Assembly: GCA_028687715.1 (NCBI GenBank)
Contig: JAQTZP010000001.1
Location: 103,876-167,875, forward strand
Source of the DNA: Minisyncoccota bacterium
GTDB lineage: Bacteria > Patescibacteriota > Minisyncoccia > Minisyncoccales > GWA2-38-27
Direction: 5' to 3'
Length of the DNA stretch: 64,000 nucleotides
The notes beneath the pieces were generated by a model. The model was not told where the DNA came from. It did no database searches and worked only from the letters and a program-made list of their open reading frames with translations. The position numbers were made by a program, and so were the translations under genes. Positions 2,850 through 56,750 of the stretch are shown piece by piece. Within the stretch, counting starts at the first letter, position 1. Every line of letters begins with the position of its first letter.

Positions 2850-3239
2850 CATCTTTGGACTTTTTGAGTAAAGTTCAACCAATTCAGCTCTATTTTTCCC
2901 AATTTTAAGGGGTTCTAACCGTTTATCTTCTGCTGAAAGCTTCCTCATTGGAATTAGCGTGTTTTCTGTGCTAATTGCTATCATTTTGTCTTGAAGTAGG
3001 AGGTTCGAGCCTAAATGCGAGAGTATCTCTTTTTTCTCATCTGTGTCCCCAGTTTCAAAGCTTTGCTTGGCATCGAGCGCGAAATTGAACACCTTGTCAG
3101 CTTTGTCCAGCCATTGGTCAACCCTTTGGCTGGTTTTGTTAAATACCTCCTCCCAGCGCTTTTTCTCTACGGTTAGCGGGTCTTTTCTTAGCTTGAATTC
3201 TTCTTCGTTTATTTCGCCCGCCGCCCTCCCATAGGAGAA
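2838..3239 (-). pseudogene. C-terminal remnant of a large serine recombinase-like integrase, overlapping the tRNA-Gln 3' end
   Basis: The open frame has no start: a stop lies at 3240-3242 and the track ORF uses GTG. The sequence ...WLDKADKVFNFALDAKQSFETGDTDEKKEILSHLGSNLLLQDKMIAI...LEPLKIGKNR...MLRG resembles, from memory, the C-terminal region of large serine recombinases. No catalytic N-terminal domain is present. The last 4 codons are encoded by the tRNA 3' acceptor. Confidence 0.5.
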
Positions 3240-3460
3240 TTATCAGGAGGATTGCTGCACTATAAAGTGATAACTAAAACAGGCCTAGACAGAAAGATGT
3301 TTTTAGAGGAGTTTAAAAAGTTTTCAGATTATAAATTCATTCTTCTTTAAAGATTTATTTCATGATATTATAGATTAACAATTCAATAAGGATTAACCTG
3401 CCTAATTAGGAGGTAAAATATTCTAATTAATATTTTTAATTAATAAATAATAATTAATAT

Positions 3461-5809: not shown

Positions 5810-6892
5810 ATGAAATCCGCAGTTATAAATTATAGCCAATGTTGGGAAGATCCTCATATTTTATTATCCGCATTGCAGGTTTCGAACGATGATATTGTGC
5901 TGTCCATAACTTCCGGCGGGGATAATGCGCTGGCTATATTAACCGAGAAGCCGGCGAGGGTGATCTCCATTGATTCGAATAATCTGCAAAATTATTTATT
6001 GGAGCTTAAGTTAGCTGCTATAGCAAATTTAGGCTATCGGGATTCCCTGAAATTTCTAGGCGCGGAGAGGACGACTGATAGGAGCGAAACTTTTAAAAAA
6101 ATCCAAAACTCTCTTTCGGTGGAGACAAGGTCATGGTGGCAGAAAAACCATCGAGCAATAGATGCGGGTGTTATTAACTGCGGCCGATTTGAGAAGTTTT
6201 TGAAATTATTTTCAAAACTTGCATTGCCGACTATACATTCGCAAAAAATAACATCAGAATTCCTTAATATCAGCGACATAGAGCAGCAAAAAAAATTCTA
6301 TGATAATATCTGGAATACATGGAAATGGAGGCTCTTTTTTAAAATATTTTCAAACAAATTAGTATTAAAAAAGTTTGCCAGGCAGAAAGGAATTTTCGAA
6401 TATGCCGATGTGCCGAATATTGGAGACATATATTTCAAAAGATTTCAAAATAATCTTCGGACCATTTCTCTCAGAGATAACTATTTTATGCATTATTGCC
6501 TTACCGGATTTTACAATTTAGAGTCGCTCCCGCCGTATCTGAACGAAATAAATAAAGACGCCATTATAGAGGGCAGGAATAAATTAAACATTGCGACAGG
6601 GGATATTTTTGATTATCTAAAGTCAATTCCTAATGGCTATTTTTCAAAATTTAATTTGTCGGATGTTTTTGAATTGCTTTCAGAAGATAAGAATGACAGG
6701 CTTTGGGAAGAAATTGTTCGCACGTCGAAAAATGGCGCCATAGCGATATACTGGAATAATTTAGTTAAGAGAACCTTCCCGTCGCATTTATCGAAGAATG
6801 TCTTTGACGATGTAGCCACTGCTGAGAAAATGCACAAAATCGACAAAGCCCCCTTTTATGGGAGCTTGTATATTAACCGAATAACTAAATGA
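5810..6892 (+). CDS. DUF3419 / BtaA-like protein (S-adenosylmethionine 3-amino-3-carboxypropyl transferase family)
   Basis: N-terminus YSQCWEDPHILLSAL...VLSITSGGDNALAIL and about 360 aa fit my memory of the BtaA/DUF3419 family. Start chosen at MKSAV (5810) rather than the track start 5759. Confidence 0.6.
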   Translation: MKSAVINYSQCWEDPHILLSALQVSNDDIVLSITSGGDNALAILTEKPARVISIDSNNLQNYLLELKLAAIANLGYRDSLKFLGAERTTDRSETFKKIQNSLSVETRSWWQKNHRAIDAGVINCGRFEKFLKLFSKLALPTIHSQKITSEFLNISDIEQQKKFYDNIWNTWKWRLFFKIFSNKLVLKKFARQKGIFEYADVPNIGDIYFKRFQNNLRTISLRDNYFMHYCLTGFYNLESLPPYLNEINKDAIIEGRNKLNIATGDIFDYLKSIPNGYFSKFNLSDVFELLSEDKNDRLWEEIVRTSKNGAIAIYWNNLVKRTFPSHLSKNVFDDVATAEKMHKIDKAPFYGSLYINRITK

Positions 6893-31486: not shown

Positions 31487-32488
31487 ATGATAAAAATAGC
31501 AATCAATGGCTTTGGCCGCATAGGCAGGCCTGTATTTAGGAGAATTTTAGGCTCTCATCCTGATTTAAAGGTGGTTGCAATAAATGATTTAACTGACACT
31601 AAAACTCTCAGTCATCTTTTAAAATATGATTCTATATATAGAAACTATAAAAAGAAGGTAAGCTTTGATAATGATGAAATTATAGTAGATAATGACAAGT
31701 TTAAGGTTTTTTCAGAACCAGACCCGGCTAAACTTCCTTGGAAAAAGCTTGATATTGATATTGTCTTGGAGTGCACTGGGTTTTTCACTGACTTAAAAGG
31801 AGCTAAAAAACATATTGAAGCTGGGGCTAAAAAGGTAATAATCTCTGCTCCGGCAAAAGATGAAGAGATTCCAGGATTTATCTTAGGTGTCAATGACCAA
31901 GAGTTTGACATAAGTCATCAGATCATTGATATGGGTTCCTGCACCACTAACTGTTTGGCTCCTATGGCTAAGGTCTTAAATGATAATTTTAAGATTATAA
32001 AGGGCTTTATGACTACTGTTCACAGCTATACCAACGACCAGAGGATTTTAGACCTTCCTCACAAGGATTTGAGAAGGGCAAGGGCTGCGGGTTTAAACAT
32101 CATTCCTACCACTACTGGCGCTGCCAAGTCAATAGGCAAGATGATACCGGAGCTTAAGGGGAAACTTGATGGAATTGCTTTAAGAGTGCCTACTCCAACA
32201 GTTTCAGTTTTAGATTTAATAGTTGAGACAGAGAAAAATACTGATATTAAAGAAGTAAATGAAGCATTTAAAAAAGCGGCAGATGAAAGAATGAAAGGAA
32301 TTCTAAGGATTGAAGAGTTGCCTCTTGTTTCTTCAGACTTTATAGGAGATACTTATTCTGCCATTGTTGATGAATCTTTAACAATGGTAAAAGATAATTT
32401 AATAAAGGTAGTTGGCTGGTATGACAATGAATACGGCTATGCCTCAAGACTAGCAGAGTTTTGCGAGTTTATGGGGAAGAGAATATAA
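31487..32488 (+). CDS. gap: Glyceraldehyde-3-phosphate dehydrogenase, type I
   Basis: IAINGFGRIGR, SCTTNCLAP, WYDNEYGY. Confidence 0.95.
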   Translation: MIKIAINGFGRIGRPVFRRILGSHPDLKVVAINDLTDTKTLSHLLKYDSIYRNYKKKVSFDNDEIIVDNDKFKVFSEPDPAKLPWKKLDIDIVLECTGFFTDLKGAKKHIEAGAKKVIISAPAKDEEIPGFILGVNDQEFDISHQIIDMGSCTTNCLAPMAKVLNDNFKIIKGFMTTVHSYTNDQRILDLPHKDLRRARAAGLNIIPTTTGAAKSIGKMIPELKGKLDGIALRVPTPTVSVLDLIVETEKNTDIKEVNEAFKKAADERMKGILRIEELPLVSSDFIGDTYSAIVDESLTMVKDNLIKVVGWYDNEYGYASRLAEFCEFMGKRI

Positions 32489-32503
32489 AAATAAAGTATC
32501 AAT

Positions 32504-32869
32504 AAAAAAGGCCCCGAAAGTATGAAGACTCTCGGGGCTTTTTATCATCAGCAATAGCTCAGCCAGACCCTTGGGATCAGGGAATTCGGCTTTCTTGGAA
32601 GAAAAACCTTCCCAGCATGCTTCTTTTTCAGGCATCACAGCTGTACAGGAGTTTATACAGCTCCGCCTGAGTACTCCAGCAAGCTTTTTCCAGCCTTTTT
32701 ACCGGCCGTAGTACGCCCGTTGGCAAGAAGGTTTCAGCCGCAGATGCTGGCAGTTTTGCTGTGGCCTGGTTCAACTTGGACTGCCTGCCATTTAGCAGAG
32801 CTGCCTTTGCTGAGGGAGCGTGTCGAAACCTATCCCAATATTCCCGCTTCTATTGCCAATGACAAGTAC
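32504..32869 (-). ncRNA. Unassigned structured RNA 'B' (about 365 nt)
   Basis: It has its own promoter and terminator, is much more GC-rich than its surroundings, and has no credible ORF. Nested closing helices: 13 bp (32850-32862 with 32545-57), then GGGAAU/AUUCCC (32840-45 with 32580-85), then the hairpin GGGA..UCCC. Confidence 0.6.
32506..32545. terminator. Bidirectional terminator shared by gap (+) and RNA-B (-)
   Basis: AAAAAGGCCCCGA...TCGGGGCTTTTT. Confidence 0.75.
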
Positions 32870-32875
32870 TATTTA

Positions 32876-32904
32876 TATATATCAAAGTTTGTGTTGTTGG
32901 TCAA
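32876..32904 (-). promoter_or_regulatory. Sigma-70-like promoter of RNA-B (TTGACC-N17-TATATA)
   Basis: Read on the minus strand: -35 at 32904-32899 and -10 at 32881-32876. Confidence 0.6.
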
Positions 32905-32953
32905 ATTTTATTTCTTGTATAAACATTATATTAACGCTTTATTAATATTTTAT

Positions 32954-33665
32954 AAAAAAAGAAGGCGTTTTACTTTTCTGTTTAGGGTTTCTGGATCATC
33001 CAGAAATTGACCTATTCAGTTTCAGTAAAACGCCCTGTGAGGGCTTAAGGTTTGAGTCGAAATAACCTCACCCTCTGGTTGTCTGCCCGACCGCAAAGTG
33101 CCACGACTCGTTGGCGGTGCGTCTAGTCAACAGACAACCATTATGTTCAAAAGAACCGATGTCGAAATCCTATGAATCCCTCTTCAGAAAAATCTTTTGG
33201 TAAATTTCTCTGAAGAAGAGGCGAAGAATTATTCTTCGCCACATTAGAAAGGAACTGACAGGCAACTCGCTGTGCACCGCGAGTTTTCGCGTTTTGCGGT
33301 CAATAACCGCAGATGGAGGCCGCAACTCGCGGAGATACACTCCACCAACGTTAAGTCGGTTGATTCCAATGCCAGAAACCCAATTGGGTCTCTACGCCCC
33401 GGTCTCCTCCTCAAAGGCAGGGGAGACCCTATTTTTAATGGGCGCCTCGCGAGCAAAGCCGCTTATTAAGGAGGCGGACTCCCACCAACTCCCTGTCAGT
33501 TTCAAAAGAACAAGTGGCCCCTGTAGTTCCTTGGGCGACCGGGGCTCCGTCTTCCCCAAGGACCGACTGTCGGCTCATCCAGGATTGCGTCGGCCGCACC
33601 TGACTGCTCAGCTGTTCTTGTCAGCCAAAAGACCCGCTGAGCGATCTCCTGACTACTTTCGTTAT
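32954..33665 (-). ncRNA. Unassigned large structured RNA 'A' (about 710 nt; possibly two RNAs split at the 33220-33240 hairpin)
   Basis: Consensus promoter and a long-stem terminator (33034-33024 pairs with 32974-32964, then a U-run). GC-rich with many perfect helices, for example CTGACAGG/CCTGTCAG, GGTCTCC/GGAGACC, CCTTGGG/CCCAAGG and GCTCAGC/GCTGAGC. Only spurious ORFs. Confidence 0.6.
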
Positions 33666-33671
33666 GTTGGT

Positions 33672-33700
33672 AGTATATCACCTCCCAGCAAATTTGTCAA
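33672..33700 (-). promoter_or_regulatory. Sigma-70 consensus-like promoter of RNA-A (TTGACA-N17-TATACT)
   Basis: Minus strand: -35 at 33700-33695 and -10 at 33677-33672. Confidence 0.65.
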
Positions 33701-33769
33701 GAGCTTGGTGAATGTTAATTTTTCCCCTTCTTTGTTTTTTTTAAAAAAGGTATAATAGACTAACAAATT

Positions 33770-34336
33770 ATGAAAAAGATTAAGGTTAAAGTTTCAGCCA
33801 GGCATATCCATTTGTCTTTGAAGGATTTAAAGGCTCTTTTTGGCCCTGATTACAAGTTAAAAAAACTTAAGAGCTTAAGCCAGCCTCAAGACTTTGCAGC
33901 CTTAGAAACAGTTAAGATTAGAAATAAAGATAAGTTTATTGAAAAGGTAAGAGTTGTAGGGCCGACAAGAAAAAATACCCAATTAGAGCTTTCAATGACA
34001 GATTGTTTTAGGCTGGGCATAAGGCCGGAATTAAGACTTTCAGGAGATATAAAGGGAAGTCCTGGCTTAAATATTTCAGGGCCTTTTGGTTCAATTAATT
34101 TAAAACAGGGCGCTATTGTTGCTAAAAGACATATCCACGCTAGTCCAGCAGAAGCTAAGGAATTAAAATTAAAAGATAAAAGCATAGTTTCTGTAATCAT
34201 TAAAGGAAAAAGGTCTTTAACTTTTAATAATGTGATAGTAAGAGTAAGCGATAATTACAGGCTTTGCATGCATATTGATACAGATGAAGGAAATGCAGCG
34301 GGAATCAATAAAACAAGCTTCGGCTTTATTTTATGA
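33770..34336 (+). CDS. pduL: PduL-type phosphate acyltransferase
   Basis: Duplicated SARHIHLS / AKRHIHAS motifs; 188 aa; precedes ackA. Confidence 0.85.
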   Translation: MKKIKVKVSARHIHLSLKDLKALFGPDYKLKKLKSLSQPQDFAALETVKIRNKDKFIEKVRVVGPTRKNTQLELSMTDCFRLGIRPELRLSGDIKGSPGLNISGPFGSINLKQGAIVAKRHIHASPAEAKELKLKDKSIVSVIIKGKRSLTFNNVIVRVSDNYRLCMHIDTDEGNAAGINKTSFGFIL

Positions 34337-46751: not shown

Positions 46752-48738
<1,987 letters not shown>

Positions 48739-48883
48739 TTTTTTTGAGTGTCGGCTAAGATTGATTTTTGAGAATTCTGAAATCAATTTTAAGGGTGTTT
48801 ATCGCCAACCTTTAAATAGCGATAATAGTCAGGGCAGCTTTAAGAAGTTGAAGAAAATAAGGCCTTTTTGAGGCTTTATTTTT

Positions 48884-48912
48884 TTGACATAGCTCTTTTT
48901 TCTTGATAAAAT
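48884..48912 (+). promoter_or_regulatory. Promoter upstream of tRNA-Ile (TTGACA-N17-TAAAAT with TGn)
   Basis: Read directly from the sequence; lies about 20 nt upstream of the tRNA. Confidence 0.6.
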
Positions 48913-48933
48913 CCTTACAAGAATTAAAATTTA

Positions 48934-49005
48934 GGGCGTGTAGTTCAGTGGTAGAACGCTGTCCTGATAAGACAGAGGCCGATGGTTCAATTCCATCCAC
49001 GCCCA
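48934..49005 (+). tRNA. tRNA-Ile (anticodon GAU)
   Basis: Acceptor GGGCGTG/CACGCCC, anticodon arm CTGTC-CTGATAA-GACAG, T arm GATGG-TTCAATT-CCATC. Confidence 0.9.
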
Positions 49006-49035
49006 CACATAATTAAATTAAGTATTTATAATAAA

Positions 49036-49491
49036 ATGACTGATAATTACATTACTCCTGAAGGATTGGAGGAATTAAAAAAAGAATTAAATTATTTAAA
49101 TACAGAAAAAACTAAAGAGATTGCGGATTTAATAAAACATACCGCTTCTTTCGGCGATTTAAAAGAGAATTTTGCCTATCATGATGCTAAAGAAAAACAG
49201 GCATTTCTTCAGAAAAGAATCTTGGAACTTAAAGACAGAATAAGAAACGCTAAGATTATTGAAAAAAAGAAAAGCAATGTTATAGAAATAGGCTCTGATG
49301 TCTTAATAGATTTTGACGGCAAAAAACAAAAGATTACAATTGTAGGCTCTGAACAGGCAGACCCTATAAAAGGAAGGATTTCTTATGAATCTCCATTAGG
49401 ACAGGCTATTTTAACAAAATCAAAAGGAGATAAGGTAAAGATTGATATAAATGGAGAAAAGATTGAATGCAAGATTATTAAAATTGAATAA
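49036..49491 (+). CDS. greA: Transcription elongation factor GreA
   Basis: ITPEGLEELKKEL..., DLKENFAYHDAKE, ISYESPLGQAIL. Start at MTDNY; the track start overlaps the tRNA. Confidence 0.9.
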   Translation: MTDNYITPEGLEELKKELNYLNTEKTKEIADLIKHTASFGDLKENFAYHDAKEKQAFLQKRILELKDRIRNAKIIEKKKSNVIEIGSDVLIDFDGKKQKITIVGSEQADPIKGRISYESPLGQAILTKSKGDKVKIDINGEKIECKIIKIE

Positions 49492-49516
49492 TGATAGGAC
49501 AAATTAATGTCCTACT

Positions 49517-49588
49517 GGGCCCTTAGTTCAGTGGTAGAACGCCTCATTTGCAATGAGGAGATCGCCGGTTCGAGTCCGGCAGGGTCCA
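49517..49588 (+). tRNA. tRNA-Ala (anticodon UGC)
   Basis: Acceptor GGGCCCT/AGGGTCC with the G3:U70 identity pair. Anticodon arm CCTCA-TTTGCAA-TGAGG. Confidence 0.9.
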
Positions 49589-49590
49589 TT

Positions 49591-50088
49591 ATGAATCAAA
49601 CAGAAATATCAGCGATAAAATATGATTTAATCAGAATAGCTGTATTATTGGGAATTTCTATTTTAGCCCCTTTATTCCACCAGCAGCATATAACAGGCTC
49701 TATTGTTAATGCTGTTTTATTTATCTCAGTTATTGTGCTTGGAGTTCAAAAAGCTGTTATAATAGGTTTAATTCCAAGCCTGGTTTCATTATCAATAGGG
49801 TTTTTGCCAGTGATTCTATTTCCTATGATTCCTTTCATTATGATATCAAATGTTATTTTAATTCTAACTTTTGATTATCTAAAAAAGAACTTTATTATAG
49901 GAGTAATATCAGCCAGTATTTTAAAGTTTCTATTCCTTTATTTTTCCAGCGATTTAGTAATTAAAATGATTATCAAAAAAGAGCTTGCTTTATCTGTCTC
50001 TTCAATGATGAGCTGGCCTCAGCTTTTTACCGCTTTAAGCGGAGGCATAATTGCTTATTTATTTCTAAAAACAACTAAAAGAATCTAA
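49591..50088 (+). CDS. Polytopic membrane protein (possibly a vitamin or precursor transporter S-component type)
   Basis: 165 aa with 5 TM helices. Start at MNQTE, directly after tRNA-Ala. Confidence 0.45.
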   Translation: MNQTEISAIKYDLIRIAVLLGISILAPLFHQQHITGSIVNAVLFISVIVLGVQKAVIIGLIPSLVSLSIGFLPVILFPMIPFIMISNVILILTFDYLKKNFIIGVISASILKFLFLYFSSDLVIKMIIKKELALSVSSMMSWPQLFTALSGGIIAYLFLKTTKRI

Positions 50089-50187
50089 AAGAGTTATCCA
50101 CAGGATAGCTCTTTTTTCTTGACATTTATTTATGGTATATTTAATAAAAGGTCGGAAACACTATAAAAGCTTAAACTAAGAAAAAAT

Positions 50188-50868
50188 ATGGAAGTATTTG
50201 ATTGGTATACGACTACTGTTAACTCATTGATGGATTTATGGGGCGGCTTTATTGAGTTTGTTCCCAGACTTATCGGCGCTTTAGTCATATTTATAATCGG
50301 CTGGTTTATCTCGGTAATTATTGGAAAAATAGTAGCAGAGGTTTTAAAGAGAATAAAGTTTAATAAGATTTTTGAAAAAGGAGATATAAAAGGAGCGCTT
50401 GATAGAGCAGAATTAAAGGTTGATGCCTCAAGCTTTGTTGGAGCAATTATTAAATGGATTTTAGTAATTGTCTTTTTATCAGCAACAGTAGAGGTCTTAG
50501 GCCTTGTTCAATTCGCTTCGTTTTTAAACGACGTATTAAGCTATCTTCCTAACGTAGTGGTTGCTGTATTGATATTTGTGGTAACAGTAATTATTACTGA
50601 TATTACTGAGAAATTAGTTCGAGCCGCACTAGAAAGCACAAAAATAGGTCATGCTAGCTGGGGCGGAGCCATTGCAAAATGGTCTATTTGGGTTTTCGCC
50701 ATATTCGCTATTTTGTATCAATTACAGATAGCTCCGGGCTTAATCCAAACCCTGCTTCAAGGAATAGTGGGCTTATTGGTTGTGTCATTCGGCCTTGCAT
50801 TCGGTTTAGGCGGAAAGGATGTAGCAGCTGAGATTCTTGGGAATTTAAAGAAAAAACTGCAAAGGTAA
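50188..50868 (+). CDS. TM-helix-repeat / mechanosensitive-channel-related membrane protein
   Basis: Repeated amphipathic TM segments (FVPRLIGALVIFIIGWFIS.., LPNVVVAVLIFVVTVII.). Confidence 0.5.
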   Translation: MEVFDWYTTTVNSLMDLWGGFIEFVPRLIGALVIFIIGWFISVIIGKIVAEVLKRIKFNKIFEKGDIKGALDRAELKVDASSFVGAIIKWILVIVFLSATVEVLGLVQFASFLNDVLSYLPNVVVAVLIFVVTVIITDITEKLVRAALESTKIGHASWGGAIAKWSIWVFAIFAILYQLQIAPGLIQTLLQGIVGLLVVSFGLAFGLGGKDVAAEILGNLKKKLQR

Positions 50869-50890
50869 TATTATTCTGAAAAAGTATAAA

Positions 50891-50928
50891 ACAACAGACT
50901 TTAACATCTTGTTAGAGTCTGTTTTGTT
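50891..50928 (+). terminator. Rho-independent terminator
   Basis: AACAGACT / AGTCTGTT followed by TTGTT. Confidence 0.6.
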
Positions 50929-50935
50929 AACTGCC

Positions 50936-50963
50936 TTGACAAAGATATCTGGTTTGTTAAGAT
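50936..50963 (+). promoter_or_regulatory. 23S rRNA promoter TTGACA-N16-TAAGAT
   Basis: Same hexamers and spacing as the 16S promoter. Confidence 0.65.
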
Positions 50964-51752
50964 TGAGGTAATAAGATATGAGATTAGTTGCAAAAACAAG
51001 AAATCGTAAAAACAAAGGAAGCGGATAACTTTTTGTTTTGTTTTATTGACTTGTATAGCAGCCGCTTCCAGAACGGCTGTTTTGTTTAACTAATCCATGG
51101 GAATGACAAGAAAGTTCATTGAAAATTTATTTCAATTATTAATTGTTAGCCAATTAATTTGAGACAATTTTTATGGGCAGATGGTGGATGCCTTGGGATA
51201 TCGAGGCGATGAAGGACGTGGCGTGGCTGCGATAAGCCTCGGGGAGGTGCTTAGCAACCTATGATCCGGGGATTTCCGAATGGGGAAACCCAGCACTATT
51301 AAAACAGTGTTGCGCGCAGTAATGCGCGAGCGAACCCGCTGAAGTGAAACATCTCAGTAAGCGGAGGAAAAGATAAAAAGGGAGAATCTCTAATAAGTTT
51401 CAAACTCTGTTTGAGAAAATTAGCGATTCTTTAATTTCCTTAGTAGCGGCGAGCGAAAAGGAAGAAGCTCAAACCCGGCTGCACTTCGGTGCGGCTGGGG
51501 GTTGTAAGGGGGTAGCGTCAGGAGCATCCTTTACTTTAAAGAAATTTAAAGTGAAGGATTCTTGCTGAGGGAGAACATTTAGGTAAAGTTTGTTTAAAAG
51601 AATCATTCTGGAAAGATGAACCATAGAGGGTAATAGCCCCGTATTTAAAAAACACTTTACGCTCCTTGTTATCTTTCTTGAGTACCTCGGGAAACGAAAA
51701 CCCTGAGGGAAACAGGCTGAACTAATCAGCCAAAGCTAAATACTACGATATC

Positions 51753-51791
<39 letters not shown>

Positions 51792-53582
51792 CAGGGATGT
51801 GATCCCGGTGAAATAGAACCTGAAACCATTTTGCCTACAAGGAGGCAGAGCGCAGAGCGTTTTGTTTCGAACTTTTCAGTTCGTGATAAAACGCTCTGCG
51901 TGATGCTGTGCCTATTGAAGAATGAGCCAACGAGTTTCAGCCTCAGTTTTGTTTAAGCCCTTACAGGGCGCAAGCATAGGGAAACCAAGTGTTAAAAGCG
52001 CGAATATTGAACTGAAGCTGAAGACCCGAAGCCAGACGAGCTTACCATGGCCAGGGTGAATCTTGATGAAAATCAAGAGGAGGCCCGAACCCGTGAGCCG
52101 TGCAATACTCTGGGATGAGCTGTGGTAAGGAGTGAAAAGCTAATCGAGTCTGGTAATAGCTGGTTCTCCCCGAAATAGCTTTAGGGCTAGCGTCGGTTTT
52201 ATTAAAATTGGAGGTAGAGCACTGAATGGAATTACGTGGATTTATCCAGTCTTTCCAATCAAACTCCGAATGCCAATTTTTTACACCGGCAGTCAGACTG
52301 TGGGGGCTAAGCTCCATGGTCTAAAGGAAAAGAGTCCAGATCTTCATCTAAGGTCCCTAAACTAAGCTAAGTGTTTTTAAGGAAGTAAAATTCCAGTGAT
52401 AGATAGGAGGTTAGCTTAGAAGCAGCTATCCTTTAAAAAGTGCGTAACAGCTTACTATTTAAGGAATTTTGCGTCGAAGATTTACGGGACTAAAGCTTAG
52501 TACCGAAGATAAGGCCTTTCATTTTATTTATAATTTGGAAGGGGTAGGGGAGCATCCTTCATTCTGCGAAGGTCAGTTGCGAAGCTGGCTGGAGGATGAA
52601 GGAGAGAGAATGTTGGCATGAGTAACCACAATGGACGTGAAAGTCGTCCACACCGTTAGCCTAAGGTTTCCTTGGCAATGACAATCAGCCAAGGGTTAGG
52701 CGGGCCTAAGAGAAAGCCGAAAGGCGTACTCGATGGACAGCCGGTTAATATTCCGGCCCTCTGATTTTACTTTTCTTAAAATGACAAAGAGCAGTAGTTT
52801 TTACGTATTATTGGATTTACGTTTGCAATATAAGGAGCAATCCAAGTGTTGTGAAAATCTTTTTCCACGGAAGAAGAAATTTAAATGAGCGCTCTTTCTA
52901 GAAAAGTTTTAAGAAAGTTATAGTAAGATTGGATCCGTACCGCAAACCGACACAGGTAGGCAGGCATAAGTGTGCCAAGGTGAACGGGTGAAAGCTCCTG
53001 AAGGAACTCGGCAAAAAAGCAGACGTAACTTCGGGATATGTCTTTCCCGAGAGCGCAAGCTTATCGGGACGCAGTGAAAGTCCCCCTAGCGACTGTTTAT
53101 CAAAAACACAGGTCCCTGCTAAACTCGTAAGAGGATGTATAGGGGCTGAGGCCTGACCAGTGCTGGAACGTCAAAAGTGCCGGTATTTGCCGCAAGGTGA
53201 ATGCTGAGTGCTTGAAGCGCCAGTAAACGTCGGCGATAACCATAATCGTCCAAAGGTAGCGTAATCCCTTGCCGTGTAAGTTACGGCCCGCATGAAAGGC
53301 TTAACGACTAGGGGACTGTCTCCAGGAGTTGCCCGGTGAAAATGCAGTACCGGTAAAGATGCCGGTTACCTGCGGCTAGACGGAAAGACCCCGGGAGCTT
53401 TACTGTAGCCTAATATTGAATTTTGATCTTGAATGCGTAGCGTAGGTGGGAGACTTTGAAATCCGCTTTTCGGGGCGGATGGAGTCGCCAATGAAACACC
53501 ACTCTTTTTAGGTCTTTATTCTAACTTTAGCGTTTTGCTAAAAGACAGTGTTTGGCGGTCAGTTTAAGTGGGGCACTTGCCT

Positions 53583-54344
53583 TAACTAATCTTGTAAAAA
53601 TAAAACGCGTTACAAGATGGGGCCGTTTTAGAGTAATCTAAAATGTAAAACTCGACTAATATGCTGGAACAACCGAGTATCTAAAAGTACTTAATTTTAG
53701 TATAATTAAGTAATAATCTTTTAGTGCGGTCAATCAGCAGGGAATTGTTTAAGAATTAAAAATTAAACAAGCCCTCAACGACTGCATGTCGAGTTCCTGA
53801 TATGAATATATAAATCAGGAAAGTGATACAGTCTGAACTTTATGGCGACATAAAGATTTGGTAATGTTAGCCTATTATAGTGCTCGCTAACTAATCCAAA
53901 ACTTAAAACTCTAATTTATGAAAAGTATAATAATTGAGGATTATAAAAATAAACTTTCTTTTAGCAAAAGACTTGGAAAAATTTTAGGAGATGGACATTT
54001 AGAAAAATTATATACTCCAGGACAAGGACGTTTAAAAGTAGAACATAGCTATAAACAGAAAGAAAAAGAATATGTAGATTGGTTTTATAAAGAATTTAAG
54101 AATTGGGTTCGCACAGAACCAAAACAGAAAATAAAGAAAGTTTGGGGTAAAATTCATAGTAATTATGGATTTTCTACTTATGGTCATAGATTATTAGGAA
54201 ATTTTCATAAAGATTTTTATCAGGATAGAAAAACAGATATATTTAGGAGGGAAATCAGGTGAAAAATTTATTAAAATAATTAATCCTTTTATAATTCCCT
54301 CTATGAGGTATAAAATTTCAAGAGTTTTAAGGTTAACAGAATTG
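53583..54344 (+). mobile_element. Group I intron 1, about 10 nt 3' of the P-loop GGGGC
   Basis: The exon ends in T (..CACTTGCCT) and the intron ends in G (..GAATTG). The ligated exons restore the helix GCCTCC-TAAAGAGTAAT-GGAGGC. Core-like elements CAACGACTG and GATACAGTCT. Confidence 0.8.
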
Positions 54345-54356
54345 CCTAAAGAGTAA
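53918..54356 (+). pseudogene. Decayed LAGLIDADG homing endonuclease gene
   Basis: The first motif LGKILGDGHL is present. The ORF stops at 54262. The second LAGLIDADG block is missing. The C-terminal homology (EKFIKIINPFIIPSMRYKI) resumes in the +1 frame and runs into the exon. Confidence 0.7.
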
Positions 54357-54532
54357 TGGAGGCGTTTATAAGGTCGGCTAGCTCCGGATGGAAATCGGAG
54401 CGATAGGATAAAGCCATAAGCCGGCTTTACTGCAAGACGGATATGTCGCGCAGTTGGGAAACCAGAACTTAGTGAACCGACGGATTTTTATAGAAAATCC
54501 GAAGATCATCAGACAAAAGTTACCCCGGGGAT

Positions 54533-55421
54533 AAACTCTGAAAAAAGAGTTTGTTGTCCAACCTACCTGAGAAGGTAGGAGTCTTAAAAATTAATTTTTA
54601 AGACATGTACGGCTTATAACGGTGAACCAAAAACAGGTCTTCCCTAAATGGGTTTTGAGTTTTTGGAATACCGTGGGAAGTCGGAAAGAATAATCTAAAT
54701 TTATGATTAATTTATCTAAAGAACAAAAATCTGTTCTGTTAGGAACAATCATTGGTGATGGATATCTTCAGAAAACAGGAAAACTTAACGCAAGATTAAG
54801 ATTAGAACATGGATATAAACAGAAAGAATATCTTCTATGGAAAATAAAAATGTTAGGATATTTGTTTCAGGGAAAACCAAAGTATCTAGAAAGAATTCAT
54901 CCCATAACAAAAAGGAAACATAGATATTGGCGTCATCAGTCTCAATCTACGCCTTATTTAGGTAAATTAAGAAAGGTTTTCTATCCCAAAGAAAAGAAAG
55001 AAATTCCAGAAAACTTTGGAAAATATATTACACCGTTAATGTTAGCGGTATGGTATATGGATGACGGCTATTATTATAAAAGGGATAGATGCAGTTATCT
55101 TTATCTAGGAAACGTGAATAAAAAAGAAGCTGATATTGTATCTAAGACAATACTTAATAAATTTAAGATTGAAACAAAGATAAAAGAGAGAAAGAAAGGA
55201 TATGCGATTTATTTTTCTCCCTCTGAATCTCAAAAATTAAAATTATTGATAAAAAATTATATTATTAATTATTTTAATTATAAAATTCCTTCTTGACCCC
55301 GTAACGACTTGTCTATTTTTAGACAGAGTAGGGTATTAATTGAAACCTTGCTAAAACGCCGTCTCCAGCCCATATTATTTATATGGCTGGATGAAGATAT
55401 AGTCTAATCTTAAAAAGATTG
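54533..55421 (+). mobile_element. Group I intron 2 at GGGGAT|AACAGGCT, which from memory is the site class of the yeast mitochondrial omega (I-SceI) intron
   Basis: The exon ends in T and the intron ends in G (..AAGATTG). Contains AAGATATAGTC, which from memory resembles a group I core element near P7, and CCCCGTAACGACT. Confidence 0.85.
54703..55296 (+). CDS. LAGLIDADG homing endonuclease (intact, double-motif)
   Basis: LLGTIIGDGYL and LAVWYMDDGYY. Confidence 0.85.
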   Translation: MINLSKEQKSVLLGTIIGDGYLQKTGKLNARLRLEHGYKQKEYLLWKIKMLGYLFQGKPKYLERIHPITKRKHRYWRHQSQSTPYLGKLRKVFYPKEKKEIPENFGKYITPLMLAVWYMDDGYYYKRDRCSYLYLGNVNKKEADIVSKTILNKFKIETKIKERKKGYAIYFSPSESQKLKLLIKNYIINYFNYKIPS

Positions 55422-55483
55422 AACAGGCTAGTAGAGCCCGAGAGTTCACATCAACGGCTCTGTTCGGCACCTCGATGTCGGCT

Positions 55484-56326
55484 AAAATGATTGGCCGCTT
55501 TCCGAGTAATCGGAATGACAAAATTCAGCTAATAACGGTGAAATCCATTGTTTATTTCGGCTCATAATGTTATTGTAAAATAATGGACAATACCGTGGGA
55601 AGTCAAAAAAAAATAAATTCAAAACAAAAAAGATTATTAATAGGAACTCTATTAGGTGATGGAACTTTAGAATTAAATGGTCGATATGCACGTTTAAGGA
55701 TAAACCACAGTTTAAAGCAGAAAACTTATGTCGAATGGAAGCATAAATTACTTTATAAATTAGCAGCACGAGATAGAATTGTTTGTTTTTCTAGAAATGC
55801 AGATTTAAGAACAAATAAAACGTATTATTTTTGCAGATTCGATACTAACACTAATTTTCTGTTAGATAGATTTTATAAAATCTTCTATGTTAATGGTAAA
55901 AAAAGAGTGCCTAATAACATAATCAAAGTTTTGAATGATCCTTTATCTTTAGCAGTATGGTTTATGGATGACGGATATAAAAGAAATGACTGTAATTCGT
56001 TAAGAATTAGTACTGATGCGTTTACTTTTAAAGAACAAATTTTACTTAAGAATTGTTTGAAAGAAAACTTTAATATAGATTGTAAAATTCATAGAAAAGG
56101 GAAATACTGGAATATTTATATTCCTAGTTTAGAAGCAAAAAAATTCTCTAGAATAATAAAACCTTATATTATTCCTGAGATGAAGTACAAAATTTTGACC
56201 CCGTAACGACTGAGGTTTAAACCAAGATGGTGGTGAATAAATTACCCATCATAATACGCTGACTCCCATTATTAAATGGGAAGATGATATAGTCTACACT
56301 TCAAGTAATTGAAGACTGATAATGTG
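55484..56326 (+). mobile_element. Group I intron 3 at GATGTCGGCT|CATCACATCC (peptidyl-transferase-centre region)
   Basis: The exon ends in T and the intron ends in G (..TAATGTG). It shares AATACCGTGGGAAGTC, TAACGGTGAA, CCCCGTAACGACT and GATATAGTCT with intron 2. Confidence 0.85.
55583..56206 (+). CDS. LAGLIDADG homing endonuclease (intact, double-motif)
   Basis: LIGTLLGDGTL and LAVWFMDDGYK; paralogue of the intron 2 enzyme. Confidence 0.85.
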   Translation: MDNTVGSQKKINSKQKRLLIGTLLGDGTLELNGRYARLRINHSLKQKTYVEWKHKLLYKLAARDRIVCFSRNADLRTNKTYYFCRFDTNTNFLLDRFYKIFYVNGKKRVPNNIIKVLNDPLSLAVWFMDDGYKRNDCNSLRISTDAFTFKEQILLKNCLKENFNIDCKIHRKGKYWNIYIPSLEAKKFSRIIKPYIIPEMKYKILTP

Positions 56327-56401
56327 CATCACATCCTGGGGGTGGAGCCGCTCCCAAGGGTTTGGCTGTTCGCCAATTAAAGTGGTACGTGAGCTGGGTT
56401 C

Positions 56402-56432
<31 letters not shown>

Positions 56433-56750
56433 ACCGCAGGCGTTTGAGTCTTGAGAGGAGTTCCAGATAGTACGAGAGGACCTCTGGGAACTGACCTCTG
56501 GTCTACCAGTTGTTTTGCCAAAAGCATCGCTGGGTAGCTAAGTCGGGAAGGGATAAGCGCTGAAAGCATATAAGCGCGAAGCCTACCTCAAGATTAGGAC
56601 TCTTAGATTTCTCGAAGACTACGAGATTGATAGGCTGCAGGTGAAAGGGCAGTAATGCCTTGAGCCGAGCAGTACTAATAAATCGATTATTTTTCTCAAA
56701 TAAAATTGGCTGACAATTAATGATTGGAATAATACGATATTAAAGATATT

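Follow-up and report, generated by a model that had tools for sequence, protein, structure and literature searches.

The spacer between gap (31487-32488, plus strand) and pduL (33770-34336, plus strand) in a stretch of 64,000 nucleotides (nt) from a Minisyncoccota bacterium (Patescibacteriota; GenBank assembly GCA_028687715.1, contig JAQTZP010000001.1), hereafter referred to as the window, probably comprises two distinct genes for non-coding RNAs, both encoded on the minus strand. The one adjacent to gap, RNA B, represents a new RNA family of about 300-350 nt that is supported by covariation, occurs sporadically in Patescibacteria, and is always located in the gap-pduL spacer. The other one, RNA A, is a probable second, lineage-specific RNA. 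Patescibacteria, also termed candidate phyla radiation (CPR), account for a large share of bacterial diversity with tiny genomes, and their non-coding RNAs (ncRNAs) are almost uncharted. The locus is real, and no catalogued RNA accounts for it.

Analysis of the spacer (32489-33769) revealed only short, overlapping open reading frames (ORFs) on both strands, the longest of which encodes 153 aa on the plus strand and begins with a TTG start codon. An original prediction, made from the sequence, had stated that there is no credible ORF between gap and pduL and that the composition switches to a higher GC content, and both statements held. Thus, the GC content amounted to 0.46-0.595 over 32500-33699 compared to 0.29-0.42, or about 33%, in the flanks, and a 3-nt periodicity was detected in neither RNA A nor RNA B, with a period-3 signal/noise of 1.4 and 1.8, respectively, compared to 6-19 for gap, pduL, and the GC-rich inserted genes of relatives, and 3.2 for 16S. 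The 153-aa ORF, a spurious one lying over RNA A, resulted in no matches against 1.84e9 protein representatives, and a 146-aa ORF called over RNA B in a related locus (L005; loci of relatives are given with L numbers) matched only itself among 5.8e9 proteins.

Both RNAs are framed by the leftward promoters and the stem-plus-U-run terminators that had been read from the sequence. The promoter of RNA A (33672-33700, minus strand) consists of TTGACA, 17 nt, and (TG)TATACT; in a promoter scan it reached 11 of 12 matches and displayed the TG motif, i.e., a near-consensus extended -10 promoter placed exactly at the boundary of the GC-rich region. Sites with at least 11 of 12 matches were detected 11 times on both strands of the 64-kb window, compared to 4.3 +/- 2.4 times in shuffled sequences. 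The promoter of RNA B (TTGACC, 17 nt, TATATA; 32876-32904, minus strand) was read from the sequence, since the scan passes over it solely because the last base of its second hexamer is an A. Its position is conserved in the homologues, and a promoter of the form TTGAC(A/C)-16/17-TAnnnN precedes all five full copies of B, with TTGACA in the four homologues. RNA A is terminated by a long hairpin (AGGGCGUUUUACU...AGUAAAACGCCUU; 33036-32962) followed by U7 (in total 32952-33036, minus strand), and RNA B by an 11-bp stem (32538-32511) followed by U6 (32501-32538, minus strand). The terminator of RNA B is bidirectional and also ends gap on the plus strand, and in all five copies a GC-rich hairpin with a U-run directly follows the 3' strand of the terminal helix. 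The transcript ends predicted from promoter and terminator, 33665 to 32952 for RNA A and 32869 to 32501 for RNA B, result in the sizes of about 710 nt and 365 nt that had been proposed before. We infer that both RNAs are expressed, stable, and act in trans.

Copies and structure of RNA B

RNA B (32501-32869, minus strand; about 365 nt including the terminator) was identified in full in the window and four more times, altogether in three lineages and each time on the same strand of the same gap-pduL spacer. A search with nhmmer and a B profile resulted in E-values of 1e-76 to 1e-95 for the family copies. The copy in L005 (GCA_964516865.1, contig CAZEXD010000002.1, 8325 to 7975, minus strand) revealed 77% column identity to that of the window. 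A further copy was found via the conserved blocks on the minus strand in Joint Genome Institute (JGI) metagenomes (L024/L025), and two others are located in L048/L049 (spacer 2940-3396, aligned from 3300 to 2950, minus strand) and in L050 (GCA_040961665.1; spacer 2927-3372, aligned from 3280 to 2937, minus strand), whose PduL proteins are 87% and 71% identical to that of L024, respectively. Between the three B-bearing lineages, which are about equally distant from one another, PduL is 54-60% identical; the closest other homologue of the window's PduL shows 62% identity.

Despite this distance, blocks of 12-20 nt are invariant in B, namely GCAAAGGCAGCUCUGCUAAA, GGCAGUCC, AAACUGCCAGCA, GAAUUCCC, and AGGGUCUGGCUGA, which argues for purifying selection on a function. 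Apart from AAACUGCCAGCA, these blocks follow one another in the given order within the terminal helix and are exact in the window, L005, and L024, with one to three substitutions in L048 and L050. The lengths of the insertions and deletions between the blocks are not divisible by three, and the copies do not agree in their reading frames, so that the conservation is not of a protein-coding kind.

In L016 (JGI metagenome), only the helix-5 module described below and the 3' core of B were detected (E-values of 3.6e-8 and 5.5e-5), and this relic has neither a promoter nor a 5' core. The spacers of 14 related gap-pduL loci measure 77-453 nt, most of them 77-190 nt, and harbor no B, and PduL-anchored look-ups of L041, L042, L045, and L046 revealed no further copies. 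A scan of a genome collection with the 21-nt 3' block of B, which was too strict a query, returned only the genome of L005 and four chance matches. Within the window, neither other copies of A or B nor any similarity between the two were found. B is thus absent at the syntenic site in most relatives, a statement that refers to gap-pduL loci, with copies elsewhere in the genomes being possible. Since most syntenic relatives are devoid of B and that of L016 is decayed, B appears to be accessory rather than essential. The suggestion of a very divergent housekeeping RNA is therefore unlikely for B, the more so as the signatures of RNase P, transfer-messenger RNA (tmRNA), and signal recognition particle (SRP) RNA are absent.

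Comparison of the five copies revealed the following fold, with all positions on the minus strand. The 5' strand of the terminal helix P1 (32850-32865) pairs with 32542-32557, and 5 of its 13 pairs changed on both sides. In P2, UUGGGAU (32832-32838) pairs with AUCCCAA (32571-32577), 5 of 8 pairs being changed on both sides, with the compensatory versions UUGGAGAA/UUCUCCAA in L024 and UCGGAAAG/CUUUCCGA in L050. The motif CUCAGC (32809-32814) pairs with GCUGAG (32558-32563) in 29 of 30 cells, the outer pair being C-G, U-A, or G-U depending on the lineage, and as this helix crosses P2, the core of B is pseudoknotted. A single-stranded block of 19 nt, AAAGGCAGCUCUGCUAAA (32790-32808), is identical or nearly so in the five copies. 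Hairpin H1 (GC.GGCAGU / ACUGCC.GC; 32746-32789) has a nearly invariant stem and a loop varying from 6 to 27 nt, which is replaced in the L024 clade. The P3 domain (GCGGCU...AGCCG; 32587-32741), with 3 of 6 P3 pairs changed on both sides, holds the helix-5 module (32608-32691), i.e., an 8-bp helix, a conserved internal loop GGAGUAG/AAAGAG, and a 5-bp helix, in which 12 of 13 pairs covary. Finally, the conserved 3' core AAUUCCCUG-AUCCCAA-GGGUCUG-GCUGAG (32558-32586) comprises a junction, the 3' strand of P2, a second junction, and the 3' strand of the pseudoknot.

RNAalifold predicted 78 pairs from the five sequences, and in 32 of them pairing is retained although both partners have changed. For a curated set of 43 pairs (P1, P2, H1, P3, and helix 5), 92.1% were paired and 20 were changed on both sides, values that were reached by none of 500 column shuffles; sliding the partners by one to three columns resulted in 32-44% pairing and zero to five compensatory pairs. 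For B, the predicted structured minus-strand RNA of unknown class is hence borne out by five full copies with conserved promoter, terminator, and blocks, by strong covariation among the homologues in relatives, and by the absence of an Rfam match. In our view, B very likely constitutes a structured RNA family. As five sequences, a secondary structure open to testing, and defined ends are at hand, biochemical and structural work on B is directly possible.

A covariance model of the helix-5 module (R1) scored 72 bits in B of the window, 68-82 bits in the homologues and in L5A, and 31 bits in the L016 relic, and its matches were limited to these. L5A is a second RNA of about 270 nt just upstream of B in L005 (8370-8640, minus strand) with its own promoter and terminator, and it carries the module within a different frame, so that the module behaves as an independent domain. 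With regard to RNA A as a member or paralogue of B, both searches resulted in noise only (8.8 bits with the B profile, 7.6 bits with R1, E>3). Beside L5A, we also noticed two identical tandem copies of a gene encoding a 137-aa membrane protein (L005 8738-9658, plus strand). Furthermore, the block UCCCAAGGGUCUGGCUG of B (32561-32577) matches the window's own 23S at 56352-56368, in the H91/H92 region, in 16 of 17 positions and with the same orientation (17 nt at 94% identity in blastn). This match of 17/18 nt is real, but was noticed post hoc and is of borderline significance by our own estimate; it could be mimicry or chance. A resemblance in B to the 16S 530-loop was within chance by our own estimate.

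Searches of the whole window against Rfam 15 with the gathering score identified nothing but four tRNAs and the rRNA operon. The E<=10 search with 1451 nt of the locus resulted only in terminator look-alikes, and that with 335 nt of RNA B alone in two noise matches of 13-14 bits (E of about 7). Thus, no match to RNase P, tmRNA, SRP, or 6S RNA was found even at this threshold. The same applies to OLE, GOLLD, ROOL, raiA, HEARO, and other large ncRNAs of Rfam, which had no match in the window (gathering score), the locus (E<=10), or L005; the proposed placement in the size class of OLE, GOLLD, and ROOL therefore stands as far as size is concerned, and fails with respect to homology. ARAGORN at its default threshold found no tmRNA at the locus. 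Fuzzy scans of the RNA-sense strand with up to two mismatches for the conserved regions (CR) I, II, IV, and V of RNase P, the tmRNA T-arm, SRP domain IV (GGAA tetraloop and AGCA loop), and tRNA signatures were negative as well, in agreement with the earlier reading, which had found no RNase P, tmRNA, or SRP motifs. An identification of B as 6S RNA, a rod with a central bubble, was rejected, since B is multi-branched and pseudoknotted and has no Rfam match. In the literature, we found no descriptions of ncRNA families of Patescibacteria relevant to RNA A or B. Overall, B is likely to be truly unrelated to the known classes.

RNA A and the gap-pduL slot

RNA A (32952-33665, minus strand) is a GC-rich element of about 710 nt, free of ORFs, whose ends are predicted from promoter and terminator. 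Its predicted fold has an energy of -297.2 kcal/mol (z -8.8), compared to -145.6 kcal/mol (z -5.7) for RNA B and a z of -0.1 for a size-matched piece of the AT-rich gap gene. The helices in the fold of RNA A are long (18, 13, 12, and 9 bp) and nearly perfect, and GNRA tetraloops are missing. The two strands of RNA A differ in stability by 36 kcal/mol in favor of the minus strand, as would be expected if G-U pairs are used on the minus strand, though the plus strand itself reached a z of -8.1. In RNA B, both strands are nearly equal in stability, and G-U pairs are present in the helices. Within RNA A, a 9-bp hairpin GGCGAAGAA/UUCUUCGCC followed by UCUUCUUC (33220-33240, minus strand) was picked up as a terminator-like site in the scan and, judged by its sequence, could be a partial terminator. 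For RNA A, the claim of a structured RNA of unknown class is in keeping with its promoter, its terminator, the missing coding signal, and the strand-asymmetric fold, and the search for homologues neither confirmed nor refuted it. On balance, we regard RNA A as a probable structured RNA and as an orphan candidate.

Two further observations concern this region. RNA A contains CCGCCUCCUUAA at 33473-33484, which by its sequence resembles the anti-Shine-Dalgarno end of 16S (CCUCCUU), and L5A has CACCUCCUU. In addition, two independent Logan assemblies of this organism, each from a different sequencing run, stop at 33430 and resume at 33473, inside RNA A, and the contigs of the relatives L041, L045, and L046 also stop 145-245 nt upstream of pduL. 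Such assembly breaks in the gap-pduL spacer may be due to strain variants or to a structure that is hard to assemble.

In PduL-bearing contigs, the spacer is part of a conserved block consisting of enolase, PGAM, thioredoxin-like, glutaredoxin, gap, the spacer, pduL, ackA, a response regulator, and ppsA. Apart from the relatives with a short spacer, there are others in which it is enlarged up to 3.6 kb and a TTGACA promoter precedes unrelated minus-strand cargo. For L013, L014, L019, L027, and L028, this cargo consists of proteins that are often GC-rich (up to 69%), belong to no Pfam family, and display a membrane helix at the N-terminus along with coiled-coil or HEAT-like regions. The cargo of the window, L005, and the L024 clade, in contrast, is RNA. 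Based on the short spacer in most relatives and the differing cargo in others, the gap-pduL spacer represents a variable cargo slot. The locus hence shows a compact genome that keeps a variable slot with either protein or structured RNA as cargo. RNA A as a pseudogene of the slot proteins of relatives was rejected, as tblastn with the inserted proteins found nothing. L013 and L024 share the leader hairpin AAGCUGAAAU(U)UCAGCAA, and the cargo behind it differs (a protein and RNA B, respectively). In L016, AT-rich small ORFs are located on the minus strand (5900-6650) beside the decayed B relic in an enlarged spacer.

Alternative readings and known RNA classes

Several points weigh against two structured RNA genes of which B founds an uncatalogued family. 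B is known from five sequences in three lineages, and relatedness alone can beat shuffle controls, though the slid controls speak against that here. Among what was examined, no partner protein, ligand, or target was found; antisense targeting by B was rejected, as duplex energies of its invariant blocks with the rRNAs and tRNAs of the window were no better than those of shuffled sequences. In the case of RNA A, blastn and nhmmer detected no homologues in 46 related loci, so that its structure and function are based on one sequence. Furthermore, a GC-rich coding insert in L028 (5830-6552, minus strand) with clear codon periodicity folded with a z of -6.5 against dinucleotide shuffles, and therefore the z-score alone cannot prove a structured RNA; folding z-scores are unreliable for GC-rich islands in these genomes. 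Rfam also misses the 23S insertions of the window, which carry LAGLIDADG ORFs (no group I match at E<=1), and because it is blind to these introns, the lack of a match is necessary but insufficient for novelty. Standard catalogues already fail on introns and some RNase P RNAs of Patescibacteria: patescibacterial group I introns escape RF00028 (PMC13011429), and Lui et al. (2021) reported that 10 of 35 complete CPR genomes had no detectable RNase P RNA until the threshold was lowered to 5 bits, with these RNAs being very diverged and helices sometimes missing (PMC8172020). A strongly derived representative of a known class is thus conceivable.

The alternative that survives best concerns RNA A, which would not be a functional RNA but a dead gene or GC-rich DNA taken up from elsewhere that happens to be flanked by a terminator and a leftover promoter, its hairpins being incidental. 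The lack of a homologue in any search, the coding insert of L028 that folds nearly as well, the long and nearly perfect helices without GNRA tetraloops, and the z-score of the plus strand are all compatible with this view. Neither coding periodicity (signal/noise as given above) nor a protein remnant was detected, though, and a near-consensus extended -10 promoter at the GC boundary with a strong terminator at the other end, together with the 36 kcal/mol in favor of the minus strand through its G-U pairs, argue for an RNA gene. Patescibacterial genomes are also compact, and 0.7 kb of junk DNA would be unusual. We regard a non-functional RNA A as unlikely, while giving it an appreciable chance. 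If both A and B were inert, the locus would still illustrate that folding z-scores and a missing Rfam match are misleading in GC-rich islands of AT-rich genomes.

Improbable in our view, though worth considering, is that A and/or B are passengers or leftovers of mobile or foreign DNA, e.g., diverged intron-like ribozymes, with no benefit for the host. The variability of the spacer, with its unrelated cargo in enlarged copies, the sporadic occurrence of B among about equally distant lineages, the foreign-looking GC content of A and B, and the failure of Rfam on the introns of this genome and on patescibacterial group I introns in general would fit. On the other hand, no transposase, integrase, reverse transcriptase, or homing endonuclease was identified near A or B, and blastn against INPHARED and PLSDB as well as three viral pattern scans revealed no phage, plasmid, or viral match to the locus. 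B with its own promoter and terminator and a helix of 13-16 bp joining its ends does not display an intron layout, and its invariant blocks point to purifying selection on function.

Returning to the two RNA genes, each RNA would have a sigma-70-type promoter and an intrinsic terminator of its own. In B, the long helix P1 joining the ends would be followed by an internal loop that is strictly conserved and by P2, leading to a junction with a variable hairpin, the 19-nt invariant strand, H1, and P3, which folds independently and includes the helix-5 module, and the pseudoknot CUCAGC/GCUGAG would lock this junction to the strand between P2 and P1. As a stable trans-acting RNA, B may serve as a protein- or ligand-binding scaffold or as a ribozyme-like core, in which the internal loop and the 19-nt strand might together make up a site, either binding or active, for proteins, small ligands, or other RNAs. 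RNA A would be a second, lineage-specific structured RNA in the same variable slot, whose cargo would be accessory and possibly horizontally exchanged. Comparable conserved, pseudoknotted, and uncatalogued RNAs earlier proved to be ribozymes, riboswitch-like sensors, or scaffolds of ribonucleoproteins (RNPs). A bolder version, in which B is the core of a new ribozyme or RNP class of Patescibacteria (in the extreme, a radically re-invented RNase P RNA of lineages in which the canonical one escapes detection), A is a second new large RNA, and the slot exchanges RNA and membrane-protein cargo, appears doubtful to us.

Still less probable, and in our opinion very unlikely, is that B is an extremely derived RNase P RNA whose P1, P2, variable hairpin, and crossing helix correspond to P1-P4. 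The size of B (about 330 nt) is suitable, and so is the strand order P1-P2-hairpin-[pseudoknot 5']...P2'-J-[pseudoknot 3']-P1', which is that of RNase P class A (RF00010), with a crossing arrangement like P2/P4; this order could be shared by many pseudoknotted RNAs and is thus a weak argument. Faint, ordered look-alikes were also seen by eye (GGCUGA/GGCUUA, AAAGGCAG/AuAGGgcAg, and GAAU just before the 3' strand of P2), and the need for a 5-bit threshold and the missing helices in CPR genomes (PMC8172020) leave room for such a derivative. In contrast, RF00010 at E<=10 gave nothing on 335 nt of B, so that any score would be below about 13 bits compared to a gathering score of 100 bits, and nhmmer queries with E. 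coli M1 RNA and the RF00010 consensus revealed nothing in B at E<=100; consensus and structure of RF00010 had been obtained by running E. coli rnpB on the same tool (318.6 bits). CR-I (GAGGAAAGUCC), CR-II, CR-IV, CR-V (ACAGAA..GGCUUA), and the S-domain motifs are absent from B, just as the whole series CR-I to CR-V, its crossing helix shows no counterpart to the bulged U in P4, and an A-rich J3/4 is missing as well. Between P1 and P2, B possesses an additional conserved loop of 11 nt, and the absence of B at the site in most syntenic relatives and its decay in L016 suggest that it is dispensable in most relatives. If B nevertheless were a hidden RNase P RNA, CPR genomes would have to be judged differently as to their completeness.

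A circularly permuted (two-piece) or intron-interrupted tmRNA in place of RNA A is hardly credible: ARAGORN at an 80% threshold called one permuted tmRNA spanning almost exactly RNA A, which was treated as noise, since its 3' tRNA-like domain has a 4-bp stem with the loop GCCGA and no T-loop, neither a G3-U70 pair nor a CCA context is present, and the tag was reported as 'tag not identified' (32 aa, ending FY). In its favor, the size is in the range of tmRNA, and the word GGAUUUCGAC of RNA A is like the 5' box of tmRNA, with GGGAUUCAUAGGAUUUCGAC at 33181-33162 resembling the tmRNA 5' consensus GGGGcuGAuucuGGAUUCGAC. Unlike tmRNA, RNA A has neither a tRNA-like domain nor an alanine identity pair nor a credible tag, and nothing was found by ARAGORN at default or with any tmRNA model of Rfam at E<=10. 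A GGUUUCGAC-like word in B is not kept in the B homologues.

With OLE, GOLLD, ROOL, and raiA, RNA A and RNA B share several general features, i.e., stand-alone RNA genes of hundreds of nt with their own promoter and terminator, GC-rich in AT-rich genomes, many conserved helices, invariant single strands, a sporadic distribution, and no obvious adjoining partner gene. They differ in that there is no homology and in that B, with about 330 nt, comes from five Patescibacteria contigs and one syntenic site, and A from one genome. A and B resemble the diverged patescibacterial group I introns (PMC13011429) and the introns in the window's 23S gene in being structured and GC-richer than the genome, in escaping detection by Rfam, and in the occurrence of crossing helices. 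In contrast to these introns, A and B lie outside host genes, have their own promoters and terminators, and come without a homing endonuclease, and no similarity to the window's 23S introns was detected. Rfam models of group I and II introns had no match at the locus, a weak argument given that the 23S introns of the window are missed too; with the own promoter and terminator, the missing host gene, and the terminal helix joining the ends, it is the context that speaks against an intron.

The rRNA operon of the window

The 23S gene (51175-56685) is interrupted by two large insertions (53579-54343 and 54505-56317) and a short one of about 19 nt (56422-56440). LAGLIDADG-like ORFs are located inside the large insertions at 53918-54262, 54703-55296, and 55583-56206. 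The 23S introns are too diverged for the group I and II models of Rfam, none of which was reported at E<=1. The 16S-23S spacer (48180-51174) measures 3 kb and harbors tRNA-Ile and tRNA-Ala as well as protein-coding ORFs, namely a GreA-like protein of 169 aa (48982-49491) and membrane proteins (49507-50088 and 50188-50868), with the first two ORFs overlapping or abutting tRNA genes.

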